Assembly (NCBI RefSeq): GCF_036971445.1
Contig: NC_091478.1
Span: 14,322,001 to 14,386,000 of the forward strand
DNA from: Narcine bancroftii
Taxonomy: Eukaryota
DNA length: 64,000 nt
Reading direction: 5' to 3'
The notes beneath the pieces are model-generated. The model did not search any database. It was not told where the DNA came from and worked only from the letters and a program-made list of their open reading frames with translations. The number at the start of each line of letters is the position of its first letter. The stretch's first letter is position 1. The position numbers and the translations under genes are program-made. Positions 8,747-29,443 of the stretch are shown piece by piece.

Positions 8747-9414
8747 CTATGTACAAAAATTAGGTAGACAGTTTATGATGATGAATTTTAAAATAACTTT
8801 TTTTTTTGGGGGGGGGGAACCTATGCAGTTGTAATTTCTCTTCAATTCATCACGAAAAAAAATCCCAATCATTTATCTTTAACAATTAATGCCATGACAT
8901 CATCTAGTTTCCACATCATCAATATCCTGTGGGCCACCATTTACTTGCATCTTAACTAGAATAGCTAGAGATGGTCAGAGTCTATTGATCCAAATTTCTA
9001 GAAATGTTTTACATAGTAAAAGGAGGCCATCTGTCCCTTCGAGTCGCTGCTTTCTCTCAGAGCAATTTCATCAGTCCCATTCACCTTAGTTATTTCCCCA
9101 AAATCAATTCTCTCCCATTCCCATCAACTCTCATTAAGTCTCCTATGGGTGAACTATATTCAGAATAAGTTACAACAATAAGTACCGGGAAGAAGCTCAA
9201 ACTATCATATAATGAAAATGCAAACTCCACACGGACAGCATCAGAGGTCAGGATTGAACGATGTTCATCTGTGAAGCCCTGACTCACCTATGCCTTGCCA
9301 TCATCTTCAAGGTTTTAAAAAAAAGGTAGAATGTAGATTCTAAATCACTCAAGCTCAATACTATCCAGTATATTGACAGTCCATCAACTATCTGAAAAAC
9401 TCATCACCTTTACC

Positions 9415-9640
9415 ATGGATAGCACAGTTAGCGCAATGCTGTTACAGCTCCAGCAGTTGGGACAGGGGTTCAAATCCTGCGCTGTCTGTACTGTCTCCCC
9501 ATCTCGGCGTGGATTTCCTCCAGGTATTCAGCTTTCCTCCCACCGTCCAAAATGTACCAGGAGTTGTAGGCCAAATAGGCAGCATGAGCTCATGAGCCAA
9601 AAGGGCCTGTTACCATGCTGTATGTCTTAATTTAATTTAA
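9415..9640 (+). mobile_element. tRNA-derived SINE (V-SINE/HE1-like)
   Basis: A/B-box-like head (gttagcgcaatgctgttacagc...ggggttcaaatcc), central tttcctcc...ttcctcccac segment, and tail gggcctgttaccatgctgtatgtct(taatt)n. A related antisense copy lies at about 9015-9295. Confidence 0.7.
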
Positions 9641-11136
9641 AGGCATTGTGTCTGCAGTCATAAATATCTGCAAAATATATTGCCACAACTTACCTAGGTG
9701 TTTTCAACAGCACCTCCCAAACCGGCCACCCAAGAAAAATCAAGGAATAACCTCTGCTGACTACCTGAAATATCTCTCCATCCATACTTTGTTATGGAGT
9801 CAAAATTCTGATAACACCCATACTCAGCCACACATTGGTAACTCCTCCTGCAAGGACTGCAGCAGTTCAAGCAGGCAACTCTGTTGGGCATTTGAAAATG
9901 GAGAATAAATGTTGGGGATGCTCACATTCGGAAAGCAAATAAACATATCCCAATTTTTAAAAAAAAAACAGTTATAATGAGCTCTGATGCATCTGTTATT
10001 TCCTTGTGGGGCTGTTCAAAGTCACCTATTTTCAACCTGAGAGCTTCAGGAAAATTGTATAGATTGAGTTAAACTCTTCTCTTCAAATAACTCCGGTATA
10101 AAGAATAAAGAATTCAATTTATAGCATAAAAACAGCAAATAAATGTAACAGATTAAACAATGTAGCTAATGAATTATAAATATTTTCATTATTTCATTTA
10201 TGTGTTTGTCCAGTAAAAAAAAAAGCAGAATTTTAACTCCAATAAATGGTTCAGTGCTGATAAAATTCAATTTTACAAACACATGCACATTTTATGGTAG
10301 CATTTAAGAAGATTTCTATTTCAGAAACTACAGTAATGAGCTGTAAAATGATACATTTCCTGGTTTCCTCCATGAATGCATTTTAAATCCACACACACAA
10401 AATCAAAATTCATATTACCATTATGTTCAGTTACTGGTATCAGTGAAAAAGGACAGTGAATTATGCTTTTATTTCCTTTTACCAAAGTTTACACAAATAA
10501 GATGTGTTCCTTTTAAAACAGAAGGAAATTGAATATTCTCAAGTAAAAAAATTAAAATTTGCATTCCAGTTACTGCAGAATAAGTTCAACCAAATATAAA
10601 GTTCAACTTTAGTTGGGGTTAAATAATATACCATTAAAAATTCATTTAAAAAAAAACAAAGGACATGCGAATAAGATTTGTAAAACATTTCGTTACATTT
10701 TAGGCAGAACATATTGTTATTTGTCCAAAGCAACCGCAATTAGGACCCTTATACTCGAATCACTAAAAATCACAGAAATTGTGATTTCTGGCTGAAAGTT
10801 CACAGGACACGACAAAGAGGGAGAAATAAGGAGGAGCAAAGTTGAGTCATCTTTTACATGAATTCTTGCTGCGGTTGCTCTGCCACAGACTCATTCCAAA
10901 TTGTGGATGTCACCGAGAACAGGTTTATTGAAACCTGTCCAGCCTGACGTGCTCGCGGACATCTGGTCATTAGTTACTTACGATGTTGCAACTCCTATCC
11001 TGTTTAAATTGATACACTGCTCATTCAGAGAGGGGGAACTGTTGCGACCCATGAGACGTTGTTTCACTGGCAGGTGGCTGGAGTGATCTTTGAGAACAAA
11101 ATGCTTTCACGTCCGATTAGAATACCATGTACCCAC

Positions 11137-11221
11137 CTCACTGGACTTGCTTTGTTTCTTCACGTTCAAGTTTAAAGGGGTGTCAAGTATACTGGTGAAC
11201 TTGTTGAGTTTGGGATTGTGC
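11137..11221 (-). CDS. NRAP: NRAP coding exon 3
   Basis: ag|(A)HNPKLNKFTSILDTPLNLNVKKQSKSSE|gtgggt; completes the LIM domain; phase 2/0. Confidence 0.93.
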
Positions 11222-11540
11222 CTACCGATGTAAAAAAAAAGCATTGCATATAAATTACAAAAGTGAAATCAATCGAATTCCCTTGCAATTTCACTTTAAA
11301 AGTTGCCCAGTCAATCATTCAATCTATTCTATTAATAGATTGGAGCATTCTCATGGTAGAAAGATCTAAAAATAAAATCGCAGAGAAACCACGACAAAAA
11401 CTAAAATAGATTACAATTACTTTATGCGTTTAATTTGATGATTTCGATGTACAGCAGTGGCACCTTTTAAAGGTGTATGAATAAAATGAAAACTTTCTTA
11501 AGTGGCAATACTCCACATATTAATATCCAAAATCACTTAC

Positions 11541-11635
11541 GCCTGGCAATAGGGTTTCTTCTGGTGGCTAATAAAATTGTTAACCGTTAGGATCATTTTG
11601 CAGACCTCGCAATGAAAACAAGACTTGTGCCATGT
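11541..11635 (-). CDS. NRAP: NRAP coding exon 2 (LIM domain)
   Basis: cag|[31 protein letters not shown](A)|gtaagt; 95 nt. Confidence 0.95.
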
Positions 11636-11713
11636 CTGTAGACACAAAATGCACGTTATTCAATGTCCACAATCTTTCTTAACTTCAACGAACGTCCGGC
11701 AATATTCACTGAC

Positions 11714-11782
11714 CTGATCCAAGCAAACTAATTTCTCCGCGGGATAAACCCCGGATCCACAGCGGGCGCACGGTGCATTCAT
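11714..11782 (-). CDS. NRAP: NRAP coding exon 1 (LIM domain start)
   Basis: ATG at 11782: MNAPCARCGSGVYPAEKLVCLDQ|gtcagt; 78-nt intron 1. Divergent from CASP7, as in human 10q25. Confidence 0.95.
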
Positions 11783-11899
11783 TTTAATTATGAGTTGATA
11801 AAACCACGAAAGAGCCCTTCCCTTCCCTTCCCTTCCCCCGAGTTGCCTCCCCCCCCCCCACCAATTCACTTGGTCGAAGTTAGAACCTGTTGCAAGCAG

Positions 11900-12120
11900 T
11901 CAACGGGCTTTATTCATGGCCAAACTGGACGTCCCCGTTCCTCGCCCATTGGTTGAAACGTCCCGTTACAGGCAGAACCCAGCTTGAGTAAGGTTACCAG
12001 AGCTGTCCATCATTGTATCAGATTTAAGTCGGGAGAATGACTCGGTCTCATGAAGATCTTATCCCAAAATAGGAGGAAGTAATATGTTGCTAAATACGAT
12101 TTGACGTCAACCACATCCAG
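11900..12120 (-). promoter_or_regulatory. Putative NRAP proximal promoter
   Basis: CCAAT (minus strand) near 11948-11952; perfect CArG box CCAAAATAGG at 12064-12073 with adjacent AGGAAGT ETS core at 12074-12080; palindromic CRE TGACGTCA at 12102-12109. Confidence 0.5.
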
Positions 12121-12324
12121 AAGGGAACTGACAACATTCTATGAACACATTAAAAAGCTATTTCCTGGGCATTTTCTGTCAGGAATGGTCACACCACACG
12201 CTGCTAAATTTTCCATGTTTCTAAAGAAAACTTAGCTTGTTATCTTCTGTACAGGATGTAGTTAATATATTCCTTTTTATAATGATCATTCTGGCTATCA
12301 GTGAAGATTGGTAGGAACTCCATC

Positions 12325-13215
12325 AGTACCTGTGCACCACAGGGCTGTGTTCTTAGCCCCCTGTTCGACTGTGTGGCTTGGTACTACAAGATCTACAAAT
12401 TTGCCGACCATACCACTGTACTGGGTTGGATAAAGGAAGGGGATTCGTCAGAGTAGAGGAAGGAGATTGAAAACTTGGTGCATTTAATGTCACCAAAACT
12501 AAGAAGCTGATTGTTGACTTCAGGAAAGGAAAGCCAGAGGTAGACAATCTAGTGATTGAGAGGGTGAGCCAGTTTAAGTTCTTGGATCTTTTCTGGACCC
12601 AACAAGCCAATGTCAGTGCCTCTACTTCCTCAGGAGTTGCAAAGGTTTGGTATGACACCAGAAACACTGGCAAATTTCTACAGAGGTGTGGTGAAAAGTG
12701 TGGCTGCATCATGGTCTGGTCTGGGAACACCAATACTCCTGAATGTAAAGCCCTCTGAACGTTAGTGGGCACAGCCCAGGTAAACCCTTCCCACTATTGA
12801 GTACATCTACAGGGAACACTGCCATTGGAGAGCAGCAGCAATCATCAAAGACCCTCACCACCCAGCACACACTCTGTTCTCACTGCTGCCATCAGGAAAG
12901 AGGTTTAGGTGCCACAAAACTCACACCCCCAGTTTCAGGAACAGGTGCTACCCCTCTATCATCAGACTCCTCAATGACAAATTCAATCAGGGACTCAGTT
13001 AAGGACTCTAACTTGTGTACATTATTGATTTTTTTTTGGTTCTCTCTGTATTGCACGGTTTGTTTACATTGGTTTTCTATTTATTGTTCTTTGTTTATGT
13101 GTAAAGTTTATTTTTTGCCATGATAATTCTGCCATGACCATAGAAAAAAGGAATCTCAGGGTTGTATGTGATGTCATGTATGTATGCTGACAATAAATGT
13201 GAAATCTGAATCTGA
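12325..13215 (+). mobile_element. Rex1/Babar-like LINE 3' fragment, degenerate
   Basis: Remnant of GAPQGCVLSP, LNVTKTKKLIVDFRK, IERVSQFKFL; 3' tail gacaataaatgtgaaatctgaatctga. Same family as 41745-43620. Confidence 0.75.
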
Positions 13216-13696
13216 AGTGAATAGTATTCATAGATTAATGTTGTTAATCAGTCAATGTAAATAGAATCATTGCATGACAGAACTCATCATAGCCATGTCA
13301 TGACGCCAAGGTAATGGAATGTTAAAGCAATAAATAAAATCTATCAGCTTAATAGCAGGCTTACATTTCAACTTTTAAAATATATGATTTCCCTGTGTTT
13401 TATTTTACCTCCAAGAAGATCATTTTATTTCTCTACAGTGAATTGGTTTCTATACAACTTGCCTGCTTCAAACCTTCCACTCTTTTGGTGGGATTTGTTC
13501 TTCTGTAGAAATAGGATGAATTAATAAATTCATTAAATTGACATCCATGATTCACTTAGGATTAACATTCATGTTTTATGACATAATCCTAACTCCATAG
13601 AATTAGTTGTCTCAGTAAACTGCCTGTAATAATAGCACGTTGTGTATGTTTCAGCGAATAATTGTTTCAAATACCAAATTTTAAAGGCCAAATACT

Positions 13697-14176
13697 ATCA
13701 AATTTCCCATAGATTACTGCTGGAATTCTGCTCTCTGTCCAATTTATGACCAAAAGTCCGGAACTGAATAGTGCTGTTAAAACTTAACGGAACATTTTTT
13801 AGTAGGTTATTGATGAAGAAGTATCTAAAACACATGCAGTTCACTGGCATTAGCTGAATTAGATCATTAGCCTTTAATCTTTCATAACATTATTGCTTTC
13901 TTTTTAAGCAAGACATTAAAACAATCATTGAACTAAAATGATAAAAATTATAAGTGAATGAAACTTCTAGAATGTGTAATGTGTGATTATAGAAATTTAA
14001 GGCTAATGATCTAATTCAGCTAATGCCAGTGAACTGCATGTGTTTTAGATACTTCTTCATCAATAACCTACTAAAAAATGTTCCGTTAAGTTTTAACAGC
14101 ACTATTCAGTTCCGGACTTTTGGTCATAAATTGGACAGAGAGCAGAATTCCAGCAGTAATCTATGGGAAATTTGAT
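13697..14176. repeat. Perfect 178-bp inverted repeat (arms 13697-13874 and 13999-14176; 124-bp spacer)
   Basis: Base-by-base reverse-complement comparison shows no mismatches. Confidence 0.95.
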
Positions 14177-14271
14177 TGTGTAGCATCAAGGCGTCCTGAT
14201 AAAACTGAACAAAAACCCACAAAATACTGGAAATACTCAGCAAGTCAGGCCACATCTCTGGAGAAAGGAAG

Positions 14272-14309
14272 AGAGTTAATGTTTCAGCTTGAAATCTTTC
14301 ATCAGAACT
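14272..14309 (-). ncRNA. Penelope-type minimal hammerhead-ribozyme-like motif in a short non-autonomous repeat
   Basis: Minus strand reads AGUU-CUGAUGA-AAGAUUUCAAGCU-GAAACAUU-AACU: stem I AGUU/AACU, intact core, vestigial stem III. Confidence 0.5.
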
Positions 14310-14389
14310 GGAAAAAAAATTTTAAACAGTTATTGACAAGTTGAAGAAAATGGACAGAAAAAATAATGCTTGTAATAGAATGGAGATAA

Positions 14390-14464
14390 ACCTGATCCAA
14401 GCAAACTAATTTCTCCGCGGGATAAACCCCGGATCCACAGCGGGCGCACGGTGCATTCATTTTA
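14390..14464 (-). other. Exact 75-nt duplicate of NRAP coding exon 1 (4 nt upstream of ATG through the GT donor)
   Basis: Identical to 11712-11786 in the same orientation; the flanks are unrelated. Confidence 0.95.
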
Positions 14465-14639
14465 TCCATGCAATACAATTGCTTCTAGTGCTTTTTTGTT
14501 ACTCAAGGCTGATGTGACTGGAAGAGTGCAAATGAAGGGAGGTGATTGAAGACAGTCCTAAAATTGGGACTGCTCATGGATTGGATCAGTCCAGATTTTC
14601 CAGATTCTCAAGCCATACTTTTAAAATTCAAATTTAAGG

Positions 14640-14735
14640 CATAATAAAGAGAATGAACAGCTAAATTTTGACAGTTTATTCATTAGCCATAATAAAGAGA
14701 ATGAACAGCTAAATTTTGACAGTTTATTCATTAGC
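14640..14735. repeat. Perfect 48-bp tandem duplication
   Basis: cataataaagagaatgaacagctaaattttgacagtttattcattagc twice (14640-14687, 14688-14735). Confidence 0.95.
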
Positions 14736-15297
14736 AAATACAGCATATATACTTCGTTAATCAAAACGAGCAGTTGTAAAGATACTTAAAAAATGTAAAC
14801 ATACTTTTTCCCCCACTAAAAAAACATGTAATACTTGACATTGTTTTAAAATGTACATTGTAAAAGAAAAAGACAGTTCACAAATGAATTTCTTTGTGAT
14901 AAGATTACCTGCATTAAGCATGGTCACTTGTTGCCACTGTGCATCTGTGGTGCAAGGAAACAAAAGTTAAATTTTGTTACATTTTTGAAGTTAGAGATTT
15001 TCAAAAAAAAAGTACAGATTCTCAGGTGGTCAGCATTACTGGACTTCTACTGTAAACAACCTGTTTGAACTGGAAATCTGGAATGAAGAAGATAAAGAAT
15101 GTTGCAAATACTCAGCAAATCAATTACCATCAGTGGAGAGGGAAAACTGAATTAACATTACAGATACATGATTTTCCAACAAAATTGACCAGTTCTGATA
15201 CAAACAAGAAAGTCTGATATTTGAAATTGTTGCATCCCAAAGGCAACAATGTGTTTAGTTTGGGAATGAGGCACAGTTCATCAAGCTTATGATGAGT

Positions 15298-18200
15298 CAA
15301 TCAAAAATTTATGCAAGATATCTTTTTGAAGATTGTAGATACGCAGGGGAATATACTGATAGGAGGGGACTTTAACCTTAATTTGGACTCAAAGATGGAC
15401 AAAACTGGACAAAAAAACTAGCAGAAAGAACAAAGTAACCAAATTTATGGTTAAATCGATGCAGGAAATGCAACTTTTGGATATATGGAGGAGACAACAC
15501 CCAAAGGAGAAGGAATACTCATATTATTCGGGTAGACACAAAACATAGTCAAGGATAGACCTGTTCCTGTTGTCAACCCACATCCATGACAGAGTTAGAA
15601 AAACGGAATATAAAGCTAGATTGTTATCAGATCACTCACCCCTGTTATTAGCAATAGAGCTGGAGGACTTCCCACCAAGAACGTATAGATGAAGATTAAA
15701 CTCCATGCTACTTAAAAGACAGGATTTTAGAGAATTCATTGAGCGACAAATTAAAATGTACTTTGAAATAAATTCGGATGCAATGAACGTTCATCAGAGG
15801 GCAGATAATAAGTTATGTAACTAAGATGAAGAAGGACTACAATCGGGAAATAGAACAGCTGGAAAGGGAAATAGCAAGTACAGAAAAAGAATTAGCAACA
15901 AGGGAAGATACAAAAAAAAGAGATTGGCGAACAAAAAAATAAAATATGAAACACTACAAACGTATAAGATGGAGAAGAACATAATGAAAATAAAGCAGAA
16001 GTATTATGAGCTAGGAGAAAAAAATGCACAAAATACTAGCTTGGCAACTTAAGACAGAACAAACTAAAAGAAGGGTATTGGCATCAAGGAAAAAGGACAA
16101 ACAAATTACATATAACCCAACGGAGATCAATGAAAACTTCAAGCAATTCTATGAGCAATTATATCGAACTGAGAACAAAGGGAAAGAAGACAAAATAGAT
16201 GAGTTTCTAGCTAAAATTGAACTACCTTAATTGCAAGAAGAGGAGCAAAATAAATTAATAAAACCATTTGAAATAGAGGAAATACAGGATATATTAAAAA
16301 AAACTACAACAATAAAACACCAGGAGAGGACGGACTCCCAATAGAATTCTATAAAACATTTAAAGACTTATTAATTCCTCCTCTCCTGGAAGTAATGAAC
16401 CAGATTGAAGAAACAAAACATGCCAGATTCATGTAAAACAGCAATAATTACAGTAATACCAAAGACGGGGAAAGATCCACTAACACCAGCATCGTATAGA
16501 CCAATATCTCTACTTAACACAGATTATAAGATAATAGCTAAACTATTAGCAAACAGATTGGCCGACTGTGTACCAAAAATAGTAAAACTAGATCAAACTG
16601 GATTTATTAAGATGAACAACAGACAATATCTGTAAATTCATTAACTTAATCCATGCAGTACAAGGAAACAAGACACCAACAATGGCATTTGCCTTAGATG
16701 CAGAGAAAGCCTTTGACAGAGTAAAATGGAATTATTTATTCAAAGTACTACAAATGTTCAACCTACCAGAGAAATATATTAATTGAATTAAAGCATTATT
16801 TAAGGGACTATTGGCAAAGGTGACAGTAAATGGGTATATATCAAACCAATTTAAATTAAGCAGGTCAACTAGGCAGGGATGTCCACTATCTCCCTCACTG
16901 TTTGTATTAGCTATAGAACCACTGGAAGAACTGATAAGAACAGAAAGTAAAATAAAAGGGATAAAAATAAAAGAGAAGGAATATAAAATCAGTCTATTGG
17001 CAGATGATGTCATAGTATACTTAACAGAACCAGAAATATCAATAAAAGAATTACATAAGAAATTGAAGGAATATGAAGAGTATCGGGGTACAAGATCAAC
17101 GCAAATAAAAGTGAAGCGATACCAATGAATAATGCGGATTTCACAAAGTTTAAGAAAGAATCACCATTTAGATGGCAAACACAAGTAATCCGATACCTAG
17201 GTATACAACTAGATAATAATCTAGGCCATCTATACAAACTAAATTATCAGCCATTAATGAAGAAAATACAAGACGACTTAGAACATTGGAAAGATTTACC
17301 ACTAACACTGATAGGAAGGTTACATTGCATTAAAATGAATATCTTCCCAAGGATACAATACCTATTCCAATTGTTACCAATTCACCTAACAGAAAAATTC
17401 TTCAAGGAGCTACATAAAATAATAAGGAAATTCTTATTGAAAGGGGGGAAACCGAGGATAGCACTAGATAAATTATCAGAATGGTACAAACAAGGGGGCT
17501 TACAGCTACCAAACTTTAAGAATTATTATAGAGCAGCACAATTAAGATACCTATCAGATTTTTAATCAAACAAGGGAAAAAGCCAGATTGGACCAGATTA
17601 GAGCTAGATAAAATAGGGGAGAAGGTACCTGAACATATACTATATAAGTGGGATGAAAAGCTGGTGCAACATAGGAATTCACCAGTACTGCACCATCTGC
17701 TCAACATTTGGAAGAAGATTCACGTAGAAAGGAATAAAACAAATTATCAACTACCAAAATTAATATTGACGCAAAATCAACCAATCCCATTCACAATAGA
17801 TAACCTTTCCTTTAGAGAATGGGAAAGAAAAGGGATCAAAAGAATAGAAATATGTTTTTCGGGAAATAAATTATTATCTTTTGAACAAATGAAGTGCAAA
17901 TATGGTATAACTCACGGTACAATGTTTGCATACCACCAACTGAAAACCTCCTTGAAGGACAAATTGGGAAGCAGGCTGAGGTTACCAGAAGGAAGCAATC
18001 TTGAATATGTGATTACAGACACAATGATAATTAAAAGATTTATAACAAACATGTACATCAAACTGCAAGAGAAAGAGAACAAGGAAACAAGCTGTAAACC
18101 CAAACAAAAATGGGAACAAGATCTAAACATAAAGAATGAAACATGGGAAAAGCTATGCTCCGGAACTATGAGAAATACAATAAACACGAGGTTACACATG

Positions 18201-18970
18201 ATACAATATAATTGGTTACACAGGCTATACACCACGCCCCAAAAGTTAAATAAATGGGACCCAACAGTATCAGACAGATGTTTTCGTTGTAAGAAGGAAA
18301 TGGGAACAACAGTACATGCAATTTGGGCATGTGAGAAAGTGGAAAAGTTTTGGGAAGATCTAAATCAGGTATTAAATAAAATCACAAAAAGCAACACACC
18401 AAAAAATCCAGAGATCTTTCTTCTAAGTAATACAAGAAGAACTTGGACTCAATTTGGATGGAGCACAAAAAAGATTTATTATGATAGCCTTAGCTGTAGC
18501 AAAAAAATGTATTATGTCAACCTGAAAATTAGAAGATAGCCTGAGAATACAGCAATGGTACATAGAAATGAATAAATGTATTCCATTGGAAAAAATAACA
18601 TACAATTTAAGAAATAACATCACAGTATTTGAACAAATTTGGGAACCGTACATGGAACACAACAGAGAAGTCCTATTGCTGACCTCCACCACCTAAAATG
18701 ACAGAAGCAGAAGAAGACGAAATGAACGGACCCAGCGTGTAAAAGTAGAAGACACAAATTTCTTGTTTATTTTCATTGTGTGATGACATTGTTTAATGGG
18801 TTTAATGTATCATATATGTTGAACATTGAGTGGGTGGGGAGGGGGGTGAAGGAGGGAAGGAAGGGGGAAAAGGGGAGAAAATTACACTGTCTATATTCAA
18901 GAGGGAAATGTTTATGTGTATTTTGGTCAATATGGTTCATAGTGTGAAAAATATTTTTTTTTTTTAAAAA
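15298..18970 (+). mobile_element. L1/Tx1-like LINE, 5'-truncated within the endonuclease; ORF2 disrupted by stops and frameshifts
   Basis: IGGDFN, LSDHSP, YRPISLLNTDYKIIAK, LDAEKAFDRV, TRQGCPLSPSLF, LADDVIVY, YLGI, CFRC...HAIWAC zinc knuckle. 15-bp TSD aagcttatgatgagt at 15283-15297 and 18971-18985. Confidence 0.95.
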
Positions 18971-21099: not shown

Positions 21100-21900
21100 A
21101 TCTATCGATCTGCCTTTATCCAATCATATTGATCGGAGCTGACTGTGTTCAGAGCGGATGTGGGGAGTTTGTCTTGAGTTCAGCTTTAAACTTGTGTGAT
21201 CCCCTGCAACCATCCCCTCGCAGAAAAGAGTTGCGGTGTGAGTGAGCAATTCCTCTGCAATGATGCTGTGTCTTACCCCCACTGGTGAGTGTTTGTTTGA
21301 ATGCAGTCCACACTGAGGTTCGAGCTTCCGCGTTGGGTCATGCGCCCTTTCAAGGGGTGGCAGGTGTACGATGCCCCCAGGACCTGTCCGCTCCAACGGG
21401 GACCGGCCCACGCAGAGTGTGCAAGGAATCTTCCGGCCGCGTTCAATCTTCCACGTCGGAAACTCTCCGCTGGCTCAAAAGTTGGCCCTCGCGAGGACTT
21501 TACACGGACGTTCACGAAGGGGGTGGCAGATTGTGTTCGACACAATCCTGACCTGACAACGTGAGCCCGATCCGGCTCGACTCCGTTTAGAGTTGGGTGG
21601 GCTCTTTATTTGTGCAGGACGTGTCCCTACAGTATTACCTGCTAAATATGATTGCTACAATAATATTTGGGGTGCATCGTTAAATGGTAGTTATAATAGC
21701 CCGCTCTGATCAAGGGGCACGATTTTCCAGGCTCACTGGCCCGCGGAAGTGTCAGAACGACCAGAAATGTCACGGTGTTCGATCCAAACGTGGTGGAGCT
21801 CGGAGAAATGCTGAGGAGGTGTATGTCTGGCAATCTCAGTAGTGAGAGGAGCGGCAATGCTGCCCCACCTACGGTTCTTCAATATTTTCTGGTCCACGCT
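21100..21900 (+). promoter_or_regulatory. CpG-rich promoter / first-exon region of the TGOLN2/KCT2-like gene
   Basis: CpG density is clearly above the AT-rich background; ETS/GABP-type CGGAAGTG near 21744; contains the first coding exon. Confidence 0.55.
21260..21284 (+). CDS. TGOLN2/KCT2-family membrane protein, putative coding exon 1 (signal peptide start)
   Basis: ATG ATG CTG TGT CTT ACC CCC ACT G|gtgagt: strong phase-1 donor matching the phase-1 acceptor at 22108, giving MMLCLTPTVAFCMNILAILNRQTSCS. Confidence 0.6.
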
Positions 21901-22107
21901 TGCCCCTTATTCTGCGCTGCTCAGGTTGTTTTTTTTTAAAATCTGTTTTCATTGCTGCCCTTCTAAGCCATGAAGTGTTTTGACTTTTCCTGGCGTCACT
22001 CGCAAATTTAGATTTTGTGGGACTTCTGACCAGCTACAAATTTGTATTGTTGAGATTAACCTTTAAACAGTAAATTGTTAATGAATAACCAATGTTTCTA
22101 TCTGCAG

Positions 22108-22628
22108 TTGCTTTCTGCATGAACATCCTTGCGATTTTAAATCGACAAACATCCTGTTCTGAACAAAATAACACAACCAACTTATCTTCCACTGTAACTT
22201 CCTCTCCACGTGGGTCTGCTTCCCTTTTCGGTCAAAAAGAGTGGCTAGTTTTAACCATTCCCTTGCAAAATGGATATAAAGAGTCTACAATCACAGAGAC
22301 GTCATTTAAAGTTACCCAGTCAAATGTGTCCAATTCACAATCTACACTTGAAGAAAAGAAAGGCACAACCAAGCCAACCATGGTCAAAGAGGAAGCGAAT
22401 GTTACCCAGACAAATGGAGAACTAGCCTCTCCATCCACTGTAAGCAAAGGGGGTGGAGAGTCAACAACTGTTGTCCAACCAAGTGCACTTGGCAGTAGCA
22501 CAACGGCTCAAGCATTCTTGCAATCTGGCATCAAGATAGCTGCTGAAGATGGTCATTTTATAATTTATGTAATAGTTGGATCATTGCTTTTATCACTGAT
22601 GTATATTGTGTACCACAACAAAAATAAG
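22108..22628 (+). CDS. TGOLN2/KCT2-family membrane protein, exon 2 (Ser/Thr-rich lumenal domain and TM helix)
   Basis: tctgcag acceptor; mucin-like S/T-rich region with N-glycosylation sequons (NNT, NTT, NLS, NVS, NVT); EDGHFIIYVIVGSLLLSLMYIVYHNKNK|gtaact, like the (E/D)SHFF...YIxxHNKRK of TGOLN2 and C5orf15. Confidence 0.88.
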
Positions 22629-24079
22629 GTAACTAATTTATTTAACAACTTTCTTGGTTTAATGTGCAAGAAGTTCTAAAGTGAGCAGGTACCGAAAGGT
22701 CTCACACTTGTTTTCCATGTAATATTTAAATGTGGTGGAGCATATTTCCAGTCTCAATTAGAGGAGTATCTGGAATGAAACATAGAAATTGAGAGTGGGC
22801 TGCCTTCCGTCAGAGAATTTCACATCTTTGTGTGAAGAACAAACCAGAAAACCATAGGAATCGGCCCTTTAGCCCATGATGCCCTATATGAAGATCTGCT
22901 TTCACGTGTTATACATCCTTCTATTGTCAATTGGTATCTATCCAGAAGCTTCTTAAGCCTACCATTATCTACTTCCATTACTACCTAGCCTCCTCTAGAT
23001 TCTGATTCACCATCCTATTTATCGTTGCTCACATTGTATACATCTGTAGTGTCTTCCCTCAGCCTCCAATGCTCCAGAGCTACCTAATCTGGAATTTTAA
23101 AAAATCACATGGTTGTTGCTTCTGAAGGGGCCCCAGTGCAACAGATCAATTCTTAATTTTTTTTTTACATCGTACTTGGCTAGAGAGCAGGCCTTTCTAA
23201 ACTTCACACTGATTGGGGAAACAATCAGAATTATTGCTACAATAATTTGGTTAACTAATTTGTGTTTAAGATCACCTATGATTATAGTTTGCCTATTTCA
23301 TGCCATCTCAACATGTTTTGGGGTCTACTATAATAATATGTCCCATTATATATGGGTGAAGTCTAAATTCTGCAAACTGAGCTAAGATTCTTCACTTTTG
23401 TCAAACTTTGCTTTAACCACCAATGACATATGACTGGATTTATTTTTCTCCTTGTTCTTTACATGGATGTTAAGTTGGCTTGCTTGCTTCCTCAGTTCAC
23501 ATGTCTCTATCATCCCAATGTTTTCATCAATTTTCCTGATTAATTCAGCTATTATTAAAGCTCTGGGCATTTGGGTACCACCTATGTGGCATTTACTGGC
23601 ACTGCTAATGTAACTGTTTCTTTCCCTTTCTGTCTCCCTGCTTGTATTCCCATCCCTCCACTATCATTTAAACACTTCTCAAAATTTCTCGAAACATCCA
23701 TGGGACATTTGTTTCAGCCTGAGTTTTTTTTTTGGCTGTCCAAGTTCTGAACTTGTCAGTCCTTCCACCACTCTGTAAATTAAAAACGTAACATTTTGAG
23801 TCTGTTTCCTTTACCAAAGATGTGTCTGACTTGAAATAGTTCAGTAATTTTATTGGCTATCATTTTTCAGCTGACTTTAGGAGGATATAATTTTAATGTA
23901 GCTTTGCATCATTTGGTAATTAAGCATCTTGCTGATATAGTTTATAAATCAGTATTTGTTGAGTTCTTACCTTGGAATGTTCAGAACCAGTTTTGTTCGA
24001 CAGGTCTGTTTTACACAATGAAATTTAAATTTTCCAAAACCTTTTTAATTTGCTTCACTTCAAATTATTTCTTTGTCAG

Positions 24080-24196
24080 AAATTTGGAAGTAGAAGAACC
24101 AGTTGGCCGAATACTTGTGAATATCAACGGCTTGATCAGAACTTGAGTGAAGTCATCACCAGTCTAAAAAAGAAAACCAACATTAAACTACTCTGA
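24080..24196 (+). CDS. TGOLN2/KCT2-family membrane protein, exon 3 (cytoplasmic tail with YQRL motif)
   Basis: tcag|KFGSRRTSWPNTCEYQRLDQNLSEVITSLKKKTNIKLL*; AATAAA signals near 24749 and 24969 in a ~1-kb unique 3' UTR. Confidence 0.85.
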   Translation, partial: KFGSRRTSWPNTCEYQRLDQNLSEVITSLKKKTNIKLL

Positions 24197-25214
24197 AATG
24201 TGTGGATGTATGCATTTTGAAATCTCCAGACAATGCCTAATTGGCAATATCAGATCTCAATGACAACATTTTTAGTTGGGTTGTTACTTGCAGATTCTTG
24301 CATTGTGGTTTATTTGTTTTTCTTCTTCTAACGAAGCTGCTTACTGCTTGAAATAATTTTTTAAATGTTCAAATATGGAAATGAAGCCAATTGCACTGGA
24401 ATGTAGTGTGTCATGGAATACAGGTTTGGTTATACCTGTCTTTGCCTCTATTAAATGCAATGGCATTTGTGCAGACCAAGATTTGATTATTGAATCTCAC
24501 TGGCTTTGATTGGGAATAGAAATTTATTTGCAAGAAAAAAGCTTTGGTAATCTAAAAGGTTCTTAACCAGAATAACCAGCCACTTGTAAATGACTGTTTT
24601 CTCTTGTATGCCTCCTAATCACACCTGCTTTTAAGAAATAAGAATAATGTAAATACTTGAAGGGAGACTTCAGAGTGTAAAGGCTAGGATTTGCTCAACC
24701 AGCCAAGAAGGGACTTGATTTAAATGGTGTGCACTTAACAAATTGGAGAAATAAAATGGAACTGAGCAGTATTAATGTTTACCATTCTCTGAAATGAACA
24801 AATAGTTTTCTAAAAACTCTTTAAGAATGCAGGTTTGGTTTGAGACTTTTATTCCAACCTGGCATCCTTGAGTTGAAACCACTTAGTTTTGACTTCTATG
24901 AACTAGATGAGATGAAAAGAAATGCTATGCCTTTTTAGTGATGGAGGTGGCTTAGTGTGGATAAACATAATAAATGCCCTGTGGAGCTTGCACAAAAGGC
25001 TTATGTAAGCATTGAAATTAAAACTTTTGGCAACTACTGTTTTGCTGTCAAATTTGTAACAACCTTTTCAAAATGTATGATGACTCAAAATTTATTGGTC
25101 TTTTGACAGGACGCTGCTTAAACAACTTGTCTATATTTGAATTTAGGAAATGTTCAAATTTAAATATACTTGATTAGACAAGAAAACCAATATCTTGGCA
25201 ATCTGAAAGGAAGA

Positions 25215-28720: not shown

Positions 28721-28758
28721 CCCCCAGGAGGGATTTCTTTCTTTGGAACCTTGGTTCC

Positions 28759-29443
28759 CTTTGCCCCCCCCTCCCCTCCTTTGCCCCCCCCTCCCCTCCT
28801 TTGGCCCCCCCTCCCCTCCTTTGGCCCCCCCCTCCCCTCCTTTGGCCCCCCCCTCCCCTCCTTTGGCCCCCCCCTCCCCTCCTTTGGCCCCCCCCTCCCC
28901 TCCTTTGGCCCCCCCCTCCCCTCCTTTGGCCCCCCCCTCCCCTCCTTTGGCCCCCCCTCCCCTCCTTTGCCCCCCCCTCCCCTCCTTTGCCCCCCCCTCC
29001 CCTCCTTTGGCCCCCCCCTCCCCTCCTTTGGCCCCCCCTCCCCTCCTTTGGCCCCCCCTCCCCTCCTTTGCCCCCCCCTCCCCTCCTTTGGCCCCCCCTC
29101 CCCTCCTTTGGCCCCCCCTCCCCTCCTTTGGCCCCCCCCTCCCCTCCTTTGGCCCCCCCCCTCCCCTCCTTTGGCCCCCCCCTCCCCTCCTTTGGCCCCC
29201 CCCTCCCCTCCTTTGGCCCCCCCCTCCCCTCCTTTGGCCCCCCCTCCCCTCCTTTGGCCCCCCCCTCCCCTCCTTTGGCCCCCCCTCCCCTCCTTTGCCC
29301 CCCCCTCCCCTCCTTTGGCCCCCCCCCTCCCCTCCTTTGGCCCCCCCCTCCCCTCCTTTGGCCCCCCCCTCCCCTCCTTTGGCCCCCCCCTCCCCTCCTT
29401 TGGCCCCCCCTCCCCTCCTTTGGCCCCCCCCTCCCCTCCTTTG
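28759..29443. repeat. C-rich minisatellite, ~20-22-bp unit (TTTG(G)C6-9TCCCCTCC), about 33 copies
   Basis: Directly visible; units differ mainly in C-run length. Confidence 0.95.

Follow-up and report, generated by a model that had tools for sequence, protein, structure and literature searches.

An exact copy of the first coding exon of NRAP in the electric ray Narcine bancroftii, probably a young templated insertion

The NRAP gene of the electric ray Narcine bancroftii is accompanied by a second, exact copy of its first coding exon, which raises the questions of how an exon-sized copy came to lie upstream of the gene and whether the gene makes any use of it. We analyzed a 64,000-nt stretch of contig NC_091478.1 (RefSeq assembly GCF_036971445.1; positions 14,322,001 to 14,386,000), referred to here as the window, in whose coordinates all positions are given. 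An earlier note had described the copy and offered two accounts of it, namely a nascent alternative first exon served by a distal promoter, or a templated insertion made during break repair. Our analysis indicates that the copy is real, young and probably a passenger.

Judged by its sequence, the gene at the template locus is NRAP. Its exons were mapped on the minus strand at 11782-11714, 11635-11541, 11221-11137, 8746-8642 and 7953-7855, their translations match RefSeq proteins labelled Narcine bancroftii, and 32 of 33 homologs bear the name NRAP. The translation of exon 2 (11541-11635, minus strand; 95 nt), which encodes the second half of the LIM domain and the internal methionine of the MILTV isoform, matches the LIM family PF00412 in Pfam (E = 1.6e-7). 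Exon 1 alone (23 aa) has no LIM match in Pfam, and a PDB search returned general LIM proteins only. The fifth of these exons is far more diverged than exons 2-4, with ~49-64% identity to other rays and sharks, which could reflect relaxed constraint in the electric-ray lineage. A KCT2/TGN46-like membrane-protein gene (21200-24200, plus strand) with a CpG-rich start faces NRAP head to head, the frame itself lying at 22.1-22.6 kb; a caspase exon is found at 62.7 kb on the other strand. In the human gene order, NRAP stands beside CASP7. The window also contains two GC-rich tandem arrays (1417-1808 and 28756-29443), the former at the 5' end of a LINE frame that looks intact and lies inside an NRAP intron. 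A decayed LINE-1-like element (15200-18960, plus strand) lies directly upstream of the distal exon A described below and has relatives at 4.8-5.4, 34.1-35.2 and 43.7-44.8 kb.

Extent, reality and age of the copy

The copy (14390-14464, minus strand) comprises TAAA, the 69-nt coding part of exon 1 and GT, and is identical at 75 of 75 nt to 11712-11786, in the same orientation and at a spacing of 2678 nt (self-BLAST E = 3e-32), just as the earlier note had stated. The template on the minus strand consists of the ancestral exon 1 coding part (11782-11714), the 4 nt before it and the GT after it, and the exact match extends beyond neither end. The copy had also been said to be embedded in unrelated sequence, and the 150-nt flanks bear this out in that residual homology is absent from both: the upstream flanks gave a local alignment score of 12, equalled by 99.9% of 2000 random windows, and the downstream flanks a score of 20, equalled by 9.8% of 2000. 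The description of the copy as exon-precise applies to one end. Identity stops at the splice donor on the 3' side, and the 5' break lies 4 nt ahead of the ATG and matches no known exon start, so that exon precision in the strict sense is confined to the 3' end. The donor of the copy is indeed the weaker of the two, as claimed (CAG/GTTTAT compared with CAG/GTCAGT at exon 1), yet it matches the donor consensus at 6 of 9 positions, as do 4 of 10 other donors scored, which by this crude count is not disqualifying. The GC content of the copy is 52%. Folding of the copy and its flanks as DNA gave nothing unusual (z = -0.10), and an Rfam search of 11000-15300 returned 0 matches.

Mis-assembly had been named as the circumstance that would undo the observation. 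Nine sequencing runs match part of 9000-16000, and the contigs of four of them (X2, X5, X6 and X9) were aligned to 11000-15200 with an alignment threshold of 83%, which also admitted repeat contigs. A contig of the DNA run X2 (14228-14419; 192 nt, including 162 flank letters) crosses one junction of the copy, and a contig of run X6 (14436-14586; 151 nt, depth 2) crosses the other and reaches 29 nt inside, both with 0 differences. X6 comes from a separate study under another organism label, but its contigs of 151 and 168 nt match with 0 differences; two studies, with one sample each, contain junctions of the copy. The X2 contigs on the copy side (14228-14419) and on the gene side (11000-11741) both extend into the repeat by exactly 30 nt, which we interpret as the k-1 overlap at a branch of a 31-letter assembly graph, and a break of the template exon 1 contig at this point requires a second copy in the reads. 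The same stop pattern is seen at three junctions of a neighboring exact inverted duplication (13697-14176), in which two 178-nt arms (13697-13874 and 13999-14176) are separated by a 124-nt spacer; these arms collapse into one contig of doubled depth (13.1 compared with ~6 for the flanks). An assembly artefact would account for the 100% identity, and it is favored by the possibility that X2 is the sample from which the assembly derives and by junction overlaps of 30 and 29 repeat-side letters, 1-2 short of a 31-letter bridging rule. It is opposed by the junction-crossing contigs from separate studies and by the break in the template contig. Given these contigs and the doubled depth at a neighboring repeat with the same stop pattern, it is therefore extremely unlikely that the assembly made the copy.

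Copy and template differ at 0 of 75 positions (95% upper bound 3.9%), and the copy retains 6 of 6 CpG dinucleotides between flanks with observed/expected CpG ratios of 0.26 and 0.10. Both copies encode Ser10, a position at which the other chondrichthyan NRAP proteins compared have Phe or Cys. In a related species (organism C), a single unbroken contig aligns to 11032-11808, through exon 1, with 63 substitutions in 777 nt (8.1%). The proximal exon 1 is therefore ancestral, and an exact second copy in organism C would be expected to break its exon 1 contig. The copy appears to be young or, alternatively, to have been converted, in which case conversion would have proceeded without any flank homology.

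Distal NRAP transcripts and possible use of the copy

The proposal of a first exon that supplies the same N-terminus from a distal promoter was right in one respect, in that a distal transcript exists. Run X5 was taken as RNA, a guess at its type that is supported by canonical splice joints, no run being annotated as RNA; the RNA evidence consists of the contigs of this one run among 3 of RNA type, and contigs drop rare forms. An X5 contig of depth 398.7 contains the joints 14909-13502 (GT-AG) and 13463-11635 (GC-AG), and thereby connects two distal exons on the minus strand to exon 2. Exon A (14909-14944; 36 nt, AG acceptor, GT donor) lies in a repeat-derived stretch, its 5' edge being placed from the side length (37) and the acceptor. 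Exon B (13463-13502; 40 nt, AG acceptor, GC donor CAG/GCAAGT) is spliced to exon 2 and has a bin depth of 113.1, which equals 398.7 x 40/141. Since this contig joins A, B and exon 2, the copy lies in an intron of the distal transcript and is skipped there together with exon 1. The downstream contig of exons 2-3 has a depth of 53.9 compared with 398.7 for the distal contig, contig depth being unable to rank isoforms. The promoter of the KCT2/TGN46-like gene is a candidate source of the distal transcript. A segment at 13409-13423 (minus strand), which encodes the MIFLE start of RefSeq isoform X3 and is followed by a GT donor, is likely a longer form of exon B. A further X5 contig (12363-11887, minus strand; depth 6.5, 27 loose letters) represents an upstream RNA piece that ends at a weak donor (CAG/GTTCTA). 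The depth of exon 2 fits only if the 27 loose letters are exon 2 (106.26 computed, 106.3 observed), and this piece also appears to be spliced to exon 2, bypassing exon 1.

Among 11 RefSeq isoform sequences, whose models may themselves derive from the RNA data of X5, seven start with MNAP, one with MIFLE, one (three accessions) at the internal methionine of exon 2, and two further in. From the protein alone, the seven MNAP-starting isoforms are assignable to neither copy of exon 1. Transcripts that bypass exon 1 would lack the first LIM zinc finger of NRAP, whose LIM domain binds alpha-actinin and talin according to the available part of a review (PMC12732394); that part describes isoforms C and S only. 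The A-B-exon 2 form contains two short upstream frames and one that overlaps the next in-frame methionine, and may therefore be poorly translated. The same internal-methionine protein start is listed for Hypanus sabinus (P0037) and for a skate-cluster protein (P0070), so that bypass of exon 1 may be common to batoids. A search of titles and abstracts, which left most subscription papers outside its reach, found no NRAP form that bypasses the LIM-coding first exon and nothing linking Narcine with NRAP. Such transcripts, in an electric ray and probably in batoids more widely, may be of greater consequence than the copy itself.

The other parts of the proposal, use of the copy and an unchanged N-terminus, were not supported. 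An in-frame ATG at 14469, 9 nt upstream of the copied ATG, encodes an M-D-K-M start, and so a transcript reaching past 14469 would not yield the same N-terminus; RefSeq isoforms starting with MDK number 0 of 11. With respect to splicing from the copy to exon 2, the listed joints of this one run show the copy skipped by the X5 contig that spans it. The depth table has no X5 contig on the copy, X5 depth is 0 in the bin over the proximal exon 1, and X9 has depth 0 at 14384-14524 and upstream of 11846; these gaps in coverage were not used as evidence. In a crude motif scan, the CpG-rich proximal exon 1 has a CArG-like box at -291 and GC-like boxes, unlike the copy, which has no CArG-, MEF2- or GC-box-like motif in the 600 nt upstream of it. 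As an alternative first exon, the copy is unsupported.

Use of the copy as an exon in some tissue, whether as an internal cassette or as a new first exon, is unlikely in our estimation, although the locus offers several elements for it. The intron of the distal NRAP transcript in which the copy sits is transcribed, and a cryptic acceptor at 14517 (85% pyrimidine), 57 nt upstream of the copy's ATG, would delimit with the copy's donor a hypothetical cassette of 126 nt (14392-14517, minus strand), which is predicted rather than observed. This cassette has an in-frame ATG and an open frame into exon 2, and crude scoring finds usable splice sites and frame present. Its donor scores 6/9, while the donor at 11887, which appears to be used, scores 5/9. 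A weak pointer in the same direction comes from an X5 contig of depth 3.6 (14174-14387), whose start just past the copy's donor, by 4 nt, resembles that of an excised intron. New splice sites can activate cryptic promoters, as described for EMATS (10.1101/565184). Against exon use stand the RNA contig that crosses the intron and skips the copy, the frameshift (54-57 aa) that would follow if the cassette were joined to exon B, the missing MDK starts, and the lack of the proximal exon's promoter-like motifs. It is more doubtful still that splicing of the predicted cassette (14517-14392) returns the full LIM domain, with an MDK extension, to distal transcripts. Were the cassette spliced, it would be a coding exon caught at birth, made ready by one DNA-repair insertion before divergence, and such a rescue would switch the muscle scaffold NRAP between LIM-plus and LIM-minus forms. 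This reading supposes that a large share of NRAP transcription in this ray begins at the distal promoter.

Origin of the copy

We consider it probable that the copy is a templated insertion produced by microhomology-mediated template switching, and that it is a passenger. A recent germline DNA-repair or replication event would have written the exon 1 copy into the upstream intron. Near 14464, a 3' end left by breakage or stalling may have paired by a few bases (TAAA is a candidate) with exon 1, which is open, GC-rich and 2.7 kb away and could have served as the template for ~70 nt of synthesis, after which a second short match (GT or GGT) would have brought the nascent end back to where it started. 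The route could have been MMBIR/FoSTeS-like, or long-range synthesis by polymerase theta. From the features of the locus we infer a DNA template, the use of microhomology, the age of the copy and its lack of function. This branch of the earlier note's alternatives is the one that the evidence favors, since the copy has no target-site duplication, poly(A) or flank homology, is young, and is clustered with local duplications. No empty allele, lacking the copy, occurs among the listed contig joints and indels of the runs examined.

Two further exact duplications lie close to the copy. The inverted duplication described above occupies part of the intron that separates the copy from exon B, and its transcript would fold into a long stem with perfect pairing; one contig of the RNA run stops 3 nt into an arm and carries a single letter that does not match the genomic A, for which RNA editing is a guess. 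The merely doubled depth of the arms indicates two copies and not a high-copy element. Membership of a MITE family was considered for this repeat and rejected, as the depth only doubles and no target-site duplication was seen by eye. The other is a 48-nt tandem duplication (14640-14735) inside a repeat relic; contigs of other members of the repeat family skip 49 nt here (joint 14650-14700), and the tandem is specific to this member. Of the local exact duplications of at least 30 nt in the 64 kb, 3 of 4, the copy included, fall within 1038 nt (P ~ 0.003, post hoc), a count that sets aside transposon copies and two VNTRs sorted by hand. The template also contains words found at the junctions of the copy (left, 7 nt, inverted; right, 8 nt, direct), with a joint P of 0.006-0.013 and a summed-length P of 0.06-0.12 (post hoc and suggestive only). 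The two flanks of the copy are weakly inverted with respect to each other (P 0.025-0.04; also post hoc and suggestive).

A retrotransposed origin of the ordinary kind finds no trace at the copy, where the longest target-site duplication is 1 nt and there is no poly(A); LINE-mediated insertion as defined in PMC5110952 is therefore excluded. A class 1 TSIP or LINE-mediated retrocopy, which needs a target-site duplication of at least 5 bp and a poly(A) tail, was rejected on the same two features. The passenger might instead derive from RNA, through reverse transcription of a nascent pre-mRNA or a cleaved exon 1 splicing intermediate into a nearby break. An intermediate of this sort would explain why the 3' end coincides with the splice donor, the lack of a target-site duplication and poly(A) also fits the endonuclease-independent class 2 pattern described in PMC5110952, and LINE copies are abundant in the window. 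The retained GT had been taken to argue against a spliced-mRNA template. This carries little weight: both TAAA and GT are short enough to be microhomologies and could have been present at the target beforehand, so that the GT does not exclude an RNA template. We nevertheless hold an RNA origin to be improbable. The copy does not include an exon-exon junction, the two neighboring duplications are non-exonic and require a DNA mechanism anyway, the experimental inserts described in PMC5110952 came from distant loci, and germline transcription of exon 1 would be required. An older and larger duplication, with flanks that decayed and an exon kept identical by gene conversion and selection, would agree with the restriction of identity to the coding part and its start and donor context, as selection would keep it. 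It is very unlikely, in view of the abrupt end of identity on both sides, the unbroken exon 1 contig of organism C and the flanks, whose want of any homology indicates that the copy is not the relic of a larger duplication.

Exon-precise copies are expected by chance at ~0.1-1 per genome, under assumed values of genome size, exon density and length range. As a passenger, the copy adds to the known germline templated insertions; its main use would be as a marker and as an example of exon-sized copies arising by chance.

Comparison with known insertion classes

Like EMATS cases (10.1101/565184), the copy places a new donor within a region transcribed from a distal promoter; unlike them, its splicing has not been seen, and the observed distal exons bypass it. 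Class 2 TSIP-type experimental inserts, for which a length of 73-414 bp and evidence of an RNA origin are reported (Onozawa and Aplan 2016, PMC5110952), are matched by the copy in its size, at the low end of that range, in its intact donor sequence, and in the absence of a target-site duplication, poly(A) or a polyadenylation tail. They differ in having a distant template and in being polymorphic by definition, whereas the template of the copy is local, at 2.7 kb. Polymerase-theta TINS are described as 3-30 bp long, AT-enriched and templated within ~30 bp (Carvajal-Garcia et al. 2020, PMC7165422). The copy resembles them as a direct-repeat insertion with short words shared between junctions and template and with an AT-rich target, but at 75 nt, 52% GC and a template 2678 nt distant, it falls outside the classical size and distance of that class.

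The copy satisfies the basic description of a templated insertion, being exact (75/75) with its donor sequence intact elsewhere, and its nearest relatives appear to be the MMBIR-type templated insertions (MMB-TI), estimated at ~100 germline events per person (Osia et al. 2021, PMC8421209). In the yeast experiments of that report, MMBIR insertions have a template within 100 bp. Templates more distal than these core ranges of TINS and MMBIR insertions reportedly make up a small fraction. The copy differs from MMB-TI in that its template is 2.7 kb off rather than ~100 bp and in that it includes a whole coding exon, and its junction microhomology is a candidate only. It is like MMB-TI (PMC8421209) in being a short exact copy of nearby DNA that bears no marks of retrotransposition and has candidate microhomologies of 2-4 nt, MMB-TI likewise being found as germline variants.
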